64,000 nucleotides of DNA, taken from the sequence record NZ_CP067021.1; one strand, 5' to 3'. Made by a program: the position numbers. This document shows positions 28,301 through 43,300 of the stretch, one piece after another. The stretch comes from a plasmid. Positions within the stretch are counted from its first letter, which is position 1, and every line of letters starts with the position of its first letter.

Positions 28301-31300
28301 AGATCGAGGGGATATATTGATAGTCCACCTTTCATACAATATGTTTGCGAACGTGGTGCACGGCGATCGGTTGATCTATGGACCGTGCGTTATCCCATGC
28401 TACCTGAGCTTGCTCTAAAGTATATACGTGTGTCTTTTTACATTAATGTCTTAAACTGGCAAAATGTAAAATCAACAACTTACATCAAATCTAATTGAAT
28501 AAATCCACATTACAGTTCTAAACTCAATGGATTTTTCAGTTTAGAAAAATAGCGGTTTTTTACAATATAGTTGTAAACCTAGCCTTTCCAAATTGGTAAA
28601 ACTTCTTCAAAGGAAACTAGATAGATGGTTTGGAAGATGAACTCGTTTCATTATGGTTGGTATTTTCACCGTTACCCAATCTTTTTGTTTCTGTAACTGC
28701 TTGAGATTTTATAAAAATTACCTCTGTACACGACAAAAATAGATAACTCATTGAAATAATGTCACAATAATTGTTTTCTAACGACGAATACTATGACACA
28801 TCTCAATGAGTTATATCTTATCTTAAACAAATCTCTAAAATGGAACAAGTCACATTTAAAGTGCTTTGCGCTCATCATGCTTGTGATCATTTTAAAGCAA
28901 ACATGTAATCTTTCTTCTGCATCTAAAGCCTTGCCCATCAAGTGCTTACCACAATCATTTTATCGACGTATGCAGCGCTTCTTTGCAGGTCAGTATTTTG
29001 ATTATCGTCAAATTTCTCAGTTGATTTTCAATATGTTTTCATTCGACAAAGTGCAACTGACTTTAGATAGAACCAATTGGAAATGGGGAAAACGAAATAT
29101 TAATATCCTGATGCTCGCAATCGTTTATCGTGGAATAGCGATACCTATCCTTTGGACATTGCTTAATAAACGTGGAAATTCAGATACGAAAGAGCGTATT
29201 GCTTTGATTCAACGCTTTATAGCCATTTTTGGTAAAGACCGTATTGTGAATGTGTTCGCAGACAGAGAGTTTATCGGTGAGCAGTGGTTTACATGGTTAA
29301 TTGAACAAGACATCAACTTCTGCATTCGTGTTAAAAAAACTTCATTGTCACCAATCATTTAGGAAAGAATCATAAAATTAGTGATTTATTTCGCCATCTT
29401 AAAGTTGGTCAAATTGAATGTCGTAAACGACGGATTTTGGTTGGTCGGGTGAAACTATATATAAGTGCACTACAGTTAGAAAATGGAGAGCTTTTACTCG
29501 TCGTTTCTCCTCAGTTTAATGCCAATGCTATTCAGGATTATGCATTACGCTGGGAAATTGAAACCTTATTCAGTTGTCTCAAAGGACGCGGGTTTAATCT
29601 TGAAAATACGCGCTTGACAGACCCTAGACGAGTGAAAAAATTGATTGCGGTGTTAGCTATAAGCTTCTGTTGGTGTTACTTAACGGGTGAATGGCAACAT
29701 AATCAAAAAAAAGCGATAAAAATAAAGAAGCATGGACGACTCTCAATGAGTTTATTTCGCTATGGTTTAGACTATGTTCAAATGGCGATTCAGCGTTTAA
29801 TTGGTTTTGGGAAAAAAGAAGAGTTTAAGGAAATTTTGGCAATTTTAAGAAAGCAGAATCCTGATAGGATAAGGGTTCTGTGAAATTTGTCGTGTACAGA
29901 GAAAAATTACAATACCTAAAACAATAATACCAACCACAAGAACTATTAATAGAATTTTATTCTTTTTCATAAGATTTTATAAAAACTGCCCAAATTTAAA
30001 ATTGCAATCTTTTGCAGATGTGTATTGAGAAACAGCTCACCCATTATCTAGGGTTTCATAGTGTGTACCGGATACATTCTAAAATCTTTTATCACTTTTA
30101 GGATCAACAAACCCTGCTCTAACACGATACCCACTTGGGTTACTTGAATTATCTGTTCGTTGGTTGCCATTAGTAGCTTTTTGATCTGTTTTTACATATA
30201 GATTTTTATGTATGTACACCTGTTAAAGCATCATAAGAAATAGATTCGTTATACCAACCATATCCAAAACTTGGAATATATGCTTCTGTAAAATTTGACA
30301 TTTTTTTTAATCTCTCTTTGTTTGCAACTATATTGTTAAAGTTTAGGACTTTAATGTCCAGTTTACGTTTGTGTTGTCAAATCACATATAAAGATAAGAT
30401 CCGAGATATTAATGTTCTTCGAGCTAATAAAGGATTAAAACCTGTCAGAAAAGCAAATACAGCTGGCAGTATTTATGCTCGTTGGTATCTTGTTTATCAG
30501 GATCTTTTAATCATCATTGAGTGCCAAGTGGCTTTAAATAAAAAAGGCCCAGGTCTACCAGCTGGTATGCGTGACCTATTGTTGTACCATCTAGCAAACG
30601 CTTTAAGTTGGTTTACTATTTCAGATGCACTAGAAAATGAAGTCGCTGAGTGTGCAAGAAAATTTACTCCAAGCTTGTCACATCAAGAAGCTCTTTCTTA
30701 TTGTTCAAGTGTAATCAACCGAGCCAAAAAGACCCAAATTGAAGGTAAAGAACATCGTTATCGCTACAGACGAGAAACGATTTATCGTGAGTTAGAGGAT
30801 CTTATTCCTGAAGAAGTCTTACCACGCTTAAGGGCTATTATTCCAAATGAATTGGCAAGAGAAAGGAAGTTGGAAAGAACGTTGGAATCAAGACGAGAAA
30901 AAGGGATAGCTGAACGGGTCATCTATCGTGAAAGTCTTCAGACCAATAAATCTAAAGCGATTAAATTAAAAGCCCAAGGTTTAAAATATAAGGAAATCGC
31001 ATTAGAACTAAATCTATCCATTGATACTATTAAAGGGTATTTCAGGAAAGGTGTATTGGTATGATGCCTTGTATAGTGGCGCGTGTCAGGCGTTTACTGC
31101 ATTTGATTTGTTATGCTCTCTCCCCTTTCACAAGCTGGTGAAGCTTTATATGTTTAATAAGGAGCTTCACCATCTTTTTACAGTTAATATTTATTGAACT
31201 AATTTCATCAAACTACCAAAACTATCAATCACAGAATATTGAACTGCATCCCCCAATGATTGATTTTCTTGATTTATAGTAGCGAAGAACTTTTCAGCAC

Positions 31301-40300: not shown

Positions 40301-43300
40301 TGAGAAATTATAACAGTATAACAACCCTATACATGCCTCAAATCCAAAGTAAAGTTAGCCCATTTAAAAAGTGTATAGGTGTGATGCCTTGTATAGTGGC
40401 GTTAGCCAGCCGTTCCTTTTGCCTGGTACACATGCTTAACCTGGGCCATAGGTTCTCTTCAGATCCTCAGTGATCTTCATTTGAATGAAACCTAAGTTAT
40501 TACGCCAAAGATTAAAACTATACGCGTACAGCCTTCAGATCCGCAGTAAAGCATTCAATCTAAAAAAGTGTATAGGTGTGATGCCTTGTATAGTGGCGTT
40601 AGCCAGCCGTTCCTGTCTTTTTACATTAATGTCTTAAACTGGCAAAATGTAAAATCAACAACTTACATCAAATCTAATTGAATAAATCCACATTACAGTT
40701 CTAAACTCAATGGATTTTTCAGTTTAGAAAAATAGCGGTTTTTTACAATATAGTTGTAAACCTAGCCTTTCCAAATTGGTAAAACTTCTTCAAAGGAAAC
40801 TAGATAGATGGTTTGGAAGATGAACTCGTTTCATTATGGTTGGTATTTTCACCGTTACCCAATCTTTTTGTTTCTGTAACTGCTTGAGATTTTATAAAAA
40901 TTACAATACCTAAAACAATAATACCAACCACAAGAACTATTAATAGAATTTTATTCTTTTTCATAAGATTTTATAAAAACTGCCCAAATTTAAAATTGCA
41001 ATCTTTTGCAGATGTGTATTGAGAAACAGCTCACCCATTATCTAGGGTTTCATAGTGTGTACCGGATACATTCTAAAATCTTTTATCACTTTTAGGATCA
41101 ACAAACCCTGCTCTAACACGATACCCACTTGGGTTACTTGAATTATCTGTTCGTTGGTTGCCATTAGTAGCTTTTTGATCTGTTTTTACATATAGATTTT
41201 TATGTATGTACACCTGTTAAAGCATCATAAGAAATAGATTCGTTATACCAACCATATCCAAAACTTGGAATATATGCTTCTGTAAAATTTGACATTTTTT
41301 TTAATCTCTCTTTGTTTACAACTATATTGTTAAAGTTTAGGACTTTAATGTCCAGTTTACGTTTGTGTTGTCAAATCACAACGTGCGCTTGATCAACATT
41401 CGTTGTATAGCCCTTTCCGTTAAAACCAGGCCACCCAATATTTGAGCCGACATTATGTCTAAAACAAGCTAGGTAAAGTTCAGTCATAAAGTTTCTCTTA
41501 AGCTACTTTCTTATTCAGTATGTGTTCGGCTAAGCGCTTGATACCGCCACCGTCCGTAATTAAATGTTCAAATAATTCGCCATTCGGGTTTTTAACTCCT
41601 TCCAACTGGCCTTTTTTGATGCCTAAGACATCAGAAATAATTGGATCTGAACCCGAATCAGCCAACAAGTAATATGCCGAGATCTGTTTGATTTGACCGT
41701 CACGGTCTAAGCGACCAATACATTGATCATGAACACCAGGCGACCAATCCAACTCACCAAACACAAATGTTTTGCATTTTGAGTGGTACTGCAAGCCATC
41801 AAGCCCGGCAGATGAACGTAATGAACTAATGAAGACTTTGCTTTCATCATTCAAGAATGCTTGTTTAGAACGTTCCTTAGCTGCAGGTCCTTCCGTGCCT
41901 GTATACATAACAGGATTGAATTCAGCCAAGCGTTCTAGCCAAATGTTGTACACATCTCGATGCCAACCATAAAGCATGACTGATTCACCAGACTCAACAA
42001 GCATACGCACGAACTCAGCGACATACGGCGCTTTGGCGATACCTGTTGCTTGGCGCATCATAATATTGAATTCTTCTGTCGCACGAAGCTTTTGCCCTTG
42101 GAATTCCTGAGTAGAGCTTAAAATTACTTTTGCCAGTTCCATTGCCTTGCCCTTAATTTGATCCAGTACTTTAGGATCGCTTTCGACATATTGAGGGATG
42201 ATTTGTACTGGCGGTAACTCTCGATTTACATCTGCTCGAGTACGGCGCAACATTAGACCTTCATCACGTAAAAACATCCCAAACGCTTTAGGATCATTAA
42301 TACGTTTTTCTTGTGAACACCACTCACGAGCGAATTCAGTAGCGGTACCTAAGCTATCTGGACGCAATATTTCAATGATGTTGTAGAATTCATCACCGTA
42401 GTTATAAATCGGTGTAGCTGATAGACCGAGGCGTAATTCAGCTTGGTCACTAATGAGTTTAGCAGCGGAATACTTTTGCGATGTATAGCCAGTCCGTAAC
42501 TCTTGGATCTCGTCAAACACTACGTACTTAATCTTTCCGGCAAGATATTCAGCCCAACCGTTCAACTTTGAATAACTGGTGATAATGACATCGGGTGCTG
42601 CTTCACCCTCTTTGTGCAATGGATAAGGCGATGCTTTCTTTAGGATGTGACATTTTAGGTGCGGAGCAAAGCGTTCAATTTCATTCTTAATTTGCATTGG
42701 AAGATGTGTCATTGTCACAAAAAGCGCCGGGAGCGATTCAGGTAGAATCATCGGACATATTCCACTCGCTGTTTTGCCAAGGCCCAAATCATCCCCCAAG
42801 AGCAAACCTTTAACATTAAGTAGTAGATCTGCAGCTGCTCTTTGATACTCATATGGAGGCACGGCAAGATCAAATGTTTTGATCGGACGTTTATAGTCCA
42901 TCACATCCAAAATATCTTCTTTTAGCGACACATAAGCCTTAGATTGCGCTTTCATGTATTTAAGATCATCAACATGCATTGGATAACGTTCAATAAACCA
43001 AAGTAGGTCGTGACAATTAGACGGCGTATCGCTTAACTCAATAAATTTTGATGCATGTTGGCTGACTTGTGGGAATACACGCTTAAGTCGTGTTTTAACA
43101 TGTGGTTCACATTCAATGTGCCAGTTTTTTTCTTGACGAGAAATGGTGCCGTAAGATTTAGACATTAGAAGACCCCCACTAAAATACGATGGCGGTAAAT
43201 AAATTTATTGTTCAGTTGGATTGGAATGTTATTCACCCAATACGGTGTACCAACCACATAGAGCGCTTTTATGCTGTCATGGCTTAAATAGCGATTGATC

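Follow-up and report, generated by a model that had tools for sequence, protein, structure and literature searches.

The subject of this analysis is a 64,000-nt stretch of an Acinetobacter megaplasmid (NCBI accession no. NZ_CP067021.1), hereafter the window, to whose positions all coordinates refer unless stated otherwise. Within it, a segment of 12,950 bp (28431–41380) consists of two directly oriented copies of a 767-bp element, B1 and B2 (collectively element B), and the cargo between them, which includes a predicted type III restriction-modification (R-M) operon. The segment was inserted into the megaplasmid backbone with a 5-bp target-site duplication, and the ends of B resemble those of transposon Tn7. 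We lean towards regarding the segment as a composite transposon, non-autonomous and of the Tn7 family, that moved in one step; both the single step and the identity of the mobilising transposase are what we infer from the anatomy described below.

The insertion and its empty site

Directly outside the two outer tips of the B pair, the pentamer ACGTG can be read at 28426–28430 and again at 41381–41385, exactly where an earlier reading of this DNA (the initial annotation) had placed a 5-bp direct repeat. The two copies are a target-site duplication, as empty sites have the pentamer in a single copy. When the two flanks are joined through a single ACGTG, the reconstructed empty site (2046 bp) has one mismatch to the Acinetobacter ursingii plasmid pRIVM0002. 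A 200-bp junction probe retrieved the locus from 43 Acinetobacter plasmids, and the site is uninterrupted with a single ACGTG in 36 of them (23 at ≥99% identity and 13 on a backbone variant that is 87% identical). In the other seven, the split is exactly at ACGTG and each half has the five bases. The initial annotation had named two findings that would speak against an insertion, namely the lack of a clean empty site in related replicons and a displacement of ACGTG from the element tips in other copies. Neither was encountered: the clean site is the common state of the locus, and the TGTC.../...CACA tips are the same in every other copy of B that was examined. The locus thus shows what defines a composite transposon, with two mobile-element copies bracketing a cargo, one duplication outside them, and an empty site in relatives. 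On either view, of movement as a whole or of assembly in place, it was an insertion with B ends at this site that produced the ACGTG duplication.

Element positions 1–291 of B1 (28431–28721, plus strand), 100% identical to positions 1–291 of B2, form the left outer end of the composite. The inner right end of B1 comprises element positions 283–767 (29902–30386, plus strand), and the first 9 bp of this part belong to the duplication made by a copy of the insertion sequence (IS) ISAba1. This copy (28722–29901, plus strand; 1180 bp) is 99.5–99.7% identical to annotated copies of ISAba1, and the perfect 9-bp duplication AAAAATTAC reported in the initial annotation is indeed present on both sides, at 28713–28721 and 29902–29910. 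Without the duplicated bases, B1 (28431–28721 plus 29911–30386) is 767 bp long. B2 (40614–41380, plus strand) is intact, forms the outer right end of the composite and terminates in ...CACA. The two copies had been described as direct and identical over 767 bp; orientation and length are as described, and the identity is 766/767, element position 705 being G in B1 and A in B2. A promoter scan of B2 gave hits no more frequent than in shuffled sequences.

By its homology, the cargo is a 10.2-kb slice of a pLS488-like plasmid. The stretch similar to pLS488 runs exactly from one inner tip to the other, setting in within repB next to B1 and ending at B2. Both inner junctions therefore consist of a precise B tip joined to pLS488-like sequence, and the distance between them on the pLS488 map is 10.7 kb.

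Tn7-type ends of element B

Every copy of B starts TGTCTTTTT... and finishes ...AAATCACA, and thus has the terminal TGT ... ACA of Tn7-family elements. Three spaced TnsB-type sites extend over ~150 bp at the left (L) end, and three abutting ones over ~67 bp at the right (R) end, which is the asymmetric arrangement of repeats of ~20–22 bp found in the Tn7 family. The left-end sites of B1 are located at 28431–28456, including the TGT tip, 28507–28523 and 28562–28578 (all motif hits on the minus strand), and those of B2 at 40614–40639, 40690–40706 and 40745–40761. The right-end sites of B2 are located at 41314–41334, 41335–41354 and 41355–41380; the sole difference between the two copies (A to G at 30324) sits within the first right-end site. 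Because ISAba1 lies beyond the left-end sites, the outer end of B1 is intact. Target duplications of 5 bp, another trait of the family, are found here (ACGTG) and at other insertions of B (TCTAT, ATGGA, TCAAG and TTATT).

In the window, 19 matches to the site motif GTTTANNACNNTAWTGT compare with 0 expected. Inside the ends of B, or of the three copies of a 439-bp MITE (miniature inverted-repeat transposable element) that the window also contains, lie 18 of the 19 matches; every left-end site is on the minus strand and every right-end site on the plus strand. Since these same element ends were the source of the motif, its enrichment is in part circular, and independent support for Tn7-type ends comes from site positions that match those in separately annotated elements. 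The sites of B have offsets from the tips of 26/93/148 at the left end and 67/46 at the right end, with a degenerate terminal site at 26. The corresponding offsets are 26/94/139 and 87/67/46/26 in an Acinetobacter TnsABCDE element, 93 and 67/46 in the 439-bp element, and 87/67/26 at the right end of Tn7 from plasmid R721, the left end of which was outside the comparison.

Alignments of the ends of B with the transposon ends scored above all 300 shuffles. A probe made from the right end of B matched the tnsA-proximal end of an annotated transposon in Acinetobacter baumannii pARLG_6295_1 (82% over 67 bp), which encodes TnsA, TnsB, TnsC, TnsD, and a protein with a TnsE_C domain. The same TnsABCDE element, a candidate helper for B, is also present in A. 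seifertii NIPH 973 and in A. brisouii, and its TnsB is 55% identical to that of Tn7. The right-end sequence of Tn7 is 100% present beside tnsA on R721. No target duplication was confirmed for the copy in pARLG_6295_1, which is flanked by AGAAC and ACAAT.

Together, the TGT/ACA tips, the 5-bp duplications and the site offsets assign both B and the 439-bp element to the Tn7 family. B itself appears to be a natural mini-Tn7-like element, made up of ends only and dependent on proteins from elsewhere, with Tns proteins as its putative mobilisers. In laboratory mini-Tn7 constructs, only ~144 bp at the left end, together with 70 bp at the right end, are needed in cis (PMC11014353). As Tn7 ends are asymmetric, the two copies of B must be direct, and only the left end of B1 and the right end of B2 make a usable outer pair. 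Searches of the window by tblastn with TnsA, TnsB, TnsC and TnsD, and with TniC, TniA and TniB of Tn6022, found no tns or tni genes, so the transposition proteins must act in trans. A solitary match to the TnsB-site motif, GTTTAGTACGTTAATGT at 51889–51905 (minus strand), has no TGT tip or partner nearby and is either a chance match or a relic.

Mobility and forms of element B

Element B is mobile in its own right, with four other insertions that have perfect 5-bp duplications. Two of these are of a 1797-bp form, flanked by TCTAT in CP032137 (stretch L008, 5001–6797) and by ATGGA in pM3-1-68 (stretch L011, 3001–4798). A 473-bp form flanked by TCAAG is found in pR4WN_1BD1 (stretch L013, 3867–4339), on the same backbone as the ACGTG site and 165 bp upstream of it, and a 763-bp form flanked by TTATT in A. 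lwoffii (stretches L028 and L031). One copy in A. johnsonii has no flanking duplication. Across the 72,556 plasmid records of PLSDB, B is present in 26.

The 767-bp form corresponds to the 1797-bp form minus internal blocks of 812 and 221 bp. The longer form has two open reading frames (ORFs) of 276 and 133 amino acids, neither of which resembles a transposase; both gave sub-threshold hits only in Pfam and NCBIfam. The initial annotation had called B a MITE, a label that does not suit it. Strict MITEs are small (tens to a few hundred bp) and non-coding, with clear terminal inverted repeats and many copies, whereas B is 767 bp long, is a double-deletion derivative of an ORF-bearing element, and has tips that match each other at only ~9/12 bases. 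B is better described as a non-autonomous, transposase-less element reduced by deletion.

Two further checks proposed at the outset, a search for the element around other cargo and for the cargo without the element, both gave positive results. Pairs of B also bracket a blaGIM-1 integron and a mer operon, and the four-gene operon of the present cargo also occurs without B in other contexts. The initial annotation did not recognise the arrangement as described, and likewise we found no account of the 767/763-bp element, or of B around blaGIM-1, in the searchable literature.

The insertions in pR4WN_1BD1 and pM3-1-68 are in the same megaplasmid backbone region and in the same orientation as the copies in the window. 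These may reflect a regional hotspot or a TnsE-like orientation bias, the events being too few to judge. In conjugative plasmids of the RepAci6 type, the long form of B, Tn6022/AbaR4 and the TnsABCDE transposon share the interval between the relaxase gene on one side and the transglycosylase and traL genes on the other (CP032137, stretch L008, 5001–6797; L014, ~2560; L015, ~7078).

Single transposition or assembly in place

If the composite moved in one step, two copies of B would have inserted in a pLS488-like plasmid, one in repB and one beside a repeat region, so as to enclose the cargo; the precise inner junctions 10.7 kb apart fit two such insertions. A Tn7-family transposase supplied in trans would then bind the outer ends, the left end of B1 and the right end of B2. 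Besides TnsA and TnsB, the machinery would include TnsC and a target selector, for which TnsE, which seeks plasmids, is plausible. The whole block would be excised and pasted into the megaplasmid backbone, repair of the 5-bp staggered joins would duplicate ACGTG, and ISAba1 would enter B1 later, with the outer end untouched. As to the initial claim that the element pair moves the defence block, a real insertion with two direct mobile-element copies and a duplication is borne out; movement as one unit is not, the composite being known from a single site.

The strongest alternative is that a single B, or B around some other cargo such as the mer operon, entered ACGTG once, and that the R-M cargo arrived by later recombination. 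This could have occurred through a double crossover with a donor that carried the R-M cargo between two B copies; or a pLS488-like plasmid or circle with a copy of B could have integrated, and a deletion followed. The ACGTG duplication would then record the first event and not the arrival of the R-M cargo. We consider such an assembly in place quite possible, if on balance unlikely.

A number of observations favour it and, by the same token, weigh against movement in one step. The same site and the same ACGTG duplication hold a mer operon between two B copies in four plasmids (CP133707, CP133713, pAP2044-1 (CP087717) and OR492670), which makes in-place exchange of cargo by recombination a live alternative. 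The mer-type CRAb2 (L010) and the R-M-type L002 have the same left-flank haplotype at 7/8 variant positions, so that two cargos are found on one backbone lineage, and the R-M composite itself occurs on at least three flank haplotypes. Alleles of the operon differ by ~6%, and a block of the methyltransferase gene mod has been replaced outright, whereas the B copies and flanks are ~100% identical, a contrast that suggests recombination in place. On its inner sides, the mer cargo has the direct repeat ACTATT (L017, reverse complement, ~591 and 8649; L010, 9763), of 6 bp rather than five, which suggests the signature of a fused circle or cointegrate. ISAba1 occupies exactly the same AAAAATTAC position in the B copies of pAP2044-1 as in B1 (L012, 5321/9173, and L017, reverse complement, 8939/10120, against 28721/29902 in the window), which suggests gene conversion or exchange between copies and not repeated targeting. 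One of the pAP2044-1 copies holds an ISAba1-thioesterase-ISAba1 insert. Assembly in place has also been proposed for the 439-bp MITE (Zong 2014; PMC3934969).

Other points also count against the single step. The R-M composite occurs only at this site, in at least nine assemblies, with the same four junctions wherever the contig covers them. A second site with another duplication was found by none of the genome, plasmid (PLSDB) or exact-protein look-ups, and a donor plasmid with B in repB neither in PLSDB nor by exact-protein look-up. The B pair around the blaGIM-1 integron in p1OC061 has no flanking duplication. Target immunity, known for Tn7 and Tn6022 (PMC11014353), should disfavour both two insertions of B in one 51-kb donor and insertions 8 kb from copies of the 439-bp element. 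Transposition of these Acinetobacter elements has never been demonstrated, according to a 2022 review (PMC9771954).

Assembly in place in turn meets three difficulties. None of the 43 plasmids that carry the locus has a solo B at ACGTG, the two precise junctions 10.7 kb apart fit two insertions better than fusion followed by deletion, and the R-M cargo is without the inner direct repeat of the mer cargo. We therefore retain one-step movement as the slightly preferred reading. For epidemiology, the cargo at a fixed site can also be swapped by recombination, and shared junctions across plasmids are consequently not evidence of fresh transposition.

Candidate transposases

A further point against one-step movement by Tns proteins is the distance to the closest autonomous element found, the ends of which are ~61–72% identical to those of B over their whole length (82% in the best-matching 67 bp, at the right end), so that cross-recognition is putative. 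End probes against plasmids returned no closer autonomous parent, only the TnsABCDE element, other gene-less relatives and an internal stretch of Tn6022. A genome scan with the end probes added three right ends of TnsABCDE type (two with tnsABC nearby), further copies of B and two right ends of the 439-bp MITE, and again no parent nearer than the TnsABCDE element.

The same structure could in principle have been mobilised by the proteins of another DDE system of this superfamily that makes 5-bp duplications, either the TnsABC, TniQ and TnsF/TnsE of Tn6022/AbaR-type elements or the TniABQ of Tn402/Tn5053-type elements, in place of TnsABCDE. In favour of the former, Tn6022 transposes with a target duplication and its TnsE pathway into plasmids works (PMC11014353), and a sequence inside the Tn6022 of pA85-3 has 79% identity with the initial 98 bp of B. 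That stretch is internal and in the wrong orientation for a working end, however, and the outer left end of Tn6022 is without any B-type repeats. As for the latter, the B tip TGTCTTTT presumably resembles the tip of Tn402. The 439-bp MITEs, in contrast, truncate the Tn402 module of the integrons and do not use its ends (PMC3934969), and the number, spacing and sequence of the sites in B fit Tn7 and the Acinetobacter TnsABCDE element. A mobiliser of either of these other types is accordingly improbable in our view.

The B-like stretch of pA85-3 (NC_025109.2; stretch L014, 9001–9098) is inside Tn6022/AbaR4, just past the transposition genes, starts TGTGTTTACACAATAAAG and points away from the Tn6022 ends. 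It looks like a relic, the left end of a nested element of the Tn7 family with which the uspA-sulP side arrived.

The remaining explanation, that there was no mobile unit at all, the repeats being a segmental duplication and the ACGTG match a coincidence, starts from the 1 in 1024 probability of a lone 5-bp match and is refuted by the clean empty site in 36 plasmids, by identical tips in independent copies with four other perfect duplications, and by ends homologous to annotated Tn7-family ends, which leaves it with hardly any probability. We also considered a pdif module, in which cargo lies between 28-bp XerC-spacer-XerD sites, and rejected it: a search with the pdif consensus, with up to three mismatches allowed, gave no match anywhere in the window.

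Relationship to the 439-bp MITE

Three identical, direct copies of the 439-bp MITE are located at 11388–11826, 13358–13796 and 19707–20145. ATTAC precedes the first and follows the third, and this arrangement was the first composite of the initial annotation. At the left end, positions 1–115 of B are 78% identical to the 439-bp element (~75–78% for the left ends); at the right end, identity is ~91% over 47 bp. TnsB-type sites have the same offsets in both. The interiors are unrelated, and B falls outside the 439-bp family. The initial proposal that one MITE family moves both the antibiotic-resistance block and the defence block is thus not sustained. From the alignments, B is a sister family of the 439-bp MITE.

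Pairs of the 439-bp MITE flanking class 1 integrons were reportedly described by Gillings in 2009 and by Domingues in 2011 and 2013. They are known to surround class 1 integrons with 5-bp duplications and varied cargo per site on the same megaplasmids (Zong 2014, PMC3934969; Ghaly 2020, PMC7738440; PMC8490738). The B pair is like them in having two identical direct copies that bracket cargo in the same megaplasmid family, a 5-bp flanking duplication, varied cargos at one site, no transposase gene, and homologous ends with the same TnsB-type offsets. It is unlike them in that B is 767 bp long with a different interior and comes from a 1797-bp two-ORF element, and in that its cargo is a type III R-M operon with a repB remnant and not an integron. 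The 439-bp ends were stated to match no known IS or transposon (Zong 2014; PMC3934969), whereas here both families have Tn7-type ends. No link of the 439-bp MITE to Tn7 was found in the searchable literature, though the resemblance may have been noticed earlier. Natural mini-elements are not mentioned in a study from 2024 on Tn7-like elements of A. baumannii (PMC11014353).

We tentatively suggest, as a possibility somewhat short of an even chance, that the 767-bp and 439-bp elements are both mini-Tn7s driven in trans by resident Acinetobacter machinery of the Tn7 family, probably with TnsE. Pairs of transposase-less elements have already been blamed for the spread of carbapenemase integrons among Acinetobacter megaplasmids. 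The present locus contributes another element family and a cargo of a different class, a barrier to phages and plasmids, and its end anatomy points to a concrete and testable system, Tn7-type TnsABC with TnsD or TnsE, for which assays are already available. If both elements were mini-Tn7s, the transposase behind MITE-flanked integrons, a question open since 2009, would be named. Any DNA between two such ends, such as integrons, mer operons and R-M islands, would become Tn7 cargo aimed at conjugative plasmids, and Tn7 machinery would move blocks that it does not carry itself. This would also explain the location of the elements on conjugative and mobilisable plasmids and would predict which strains are able to mobilise them.

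Comparison with other transposons

Element B shares with Tn7 and the Acinetobacter TnsABCDE element the TGT/ACA tips, the 5-bp duplication and asymmetric ends with sites at the same offsets, and like the Tn7 family it is strongly associated with conjugative and mobilisable plasmids. By analogy with laboratory mini-Tn7, B would provide ends only and obtain its proteins in trans. Unlike Tn7, it is without tns genes and has three recognisable right-end sites, not four; moreover, two mini-elements as the arms of a composite are an arrangement that we did not find described for Tn7.

The IS-bounded composite transposons Tn5, Tn10 and Tn2006 and the Tn3-derived TIME and IMU pairs similarly hold cargo between two mobile copies with one outer duplication. 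The arms of the B composite differ from all of these in encoding no transposase and in having asymmetric ends, of which only the direct orientation gives an outer left/right pair. The inferred mobiliser, a heteromeric cut-and-paste TnsA+TnsB, is also unlike the enzymes of IS and Tn3 elements. A composite made of paired small elements is thus a known principle; what the locus adds is a second element family, a defence cargo, and the Tn7-type architecture of the ends.

Genes of the cargo

The cargo begins with the 3′ remnant of repB of the pLS488-like plasmid, a pseudogene at 30387–31064 (plus strand). For the ORF that spans it (30318–31064), identity to pLS488 RepB is complete over the last ~226 of 448 residues, from about residue 223 onwards. 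The initial annotation had listed a four-gene operon at 31191–40272 and a putative helix-turn-helix regulator as the cargo; the operon is present, and the regulator is this repB remnant.

All four genes are on the minus strand. The first by position, res (31191–34361), encodes an intact type III restriction enzyme of 1056 amino acids with a helicase and a C-terminal endonuclease. It matches PADLOC REase_III over its full length (1025 bits) and Pfam ResIII and RE_endonuc; the match to the NCBIfam type III endonuclease (E-value 7e-117) scores 392 bits, under the curated cut-off of 564. Next to it, mod (34375–36303) encodes a type III DNA methyltransferase of 641–642 amino acids with a full-length match to PADLOC MTase_III (699 bits) and to Pfam N6_N4_Mtase. 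A DUF4391 protein of 225 amino acids (36317–36994; Pfam PF14335, E-value 6e-56) follows, and this exact protein is found on at least 23 public contigs. The fourth gene (36997–40272) encodes an SNF2-family helicase of 1091 amino acids, with Pfam SNF2-rel_dom and Helicase_C and a match to PADLOC C3a139 'HKD+Snf2' (413 bits). Res and Mod, side by side and intact, constitute a type III R-M system as predicted from sequence, and the initial description of a restriction/helicase defence operon agrees with these Pfam and PADLOC assignments.

Res with its helicase and C-terminal endonuclease, and Mod with its N6/N4 methylase core, resemble type III systems of the EcoP15I type. Unlike those, the present operon has two extra co-oriented, putatively accessory genes, for DUF4391 and the SNF2 helicase, and we found no paper in the literature that describes the four-gene res-mod-DUF4391-SNF2 form. 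In the otherwise near-identical composites of pJNE5, pAJ572-1, CP157443 and VOZN01000020, unrelated sequence takes the place of a block of mod at ~34851–35819. The variable block is probably the target-recognition domain, and its replacement would imply swapped methylation and restriction specificity.

Between the operon and B2 lies non-coding pLS488-like sequence (40366–40614) with two identical 52-bp repeats (40366–40417 and 40563–40614), 197 bp apart. Both carry a terminator-like hairpin, and B2 abuts the second copy. A repeat of ~50 bp downstream of the operon (31047–31095) is 77–83% identical, depending on the alignment method, to these upstream copies. The ~50-bp repeats thus bracket the four-gene operon in direct orientation, and the operon may constitute a separate module.

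Neighbourhood of the insertion

To the right of the insertion, at a distance of a few kb, the backbone (window beyond ~44700; L036/L037, 1–2018) encodes Cas6/CasE-like and AcrVA2-like proteins. Genes for an SprT-like protein and a DEAD-box helicase adjoin them, which makes this a conflict-related neighbourhood on the megaplasmid.

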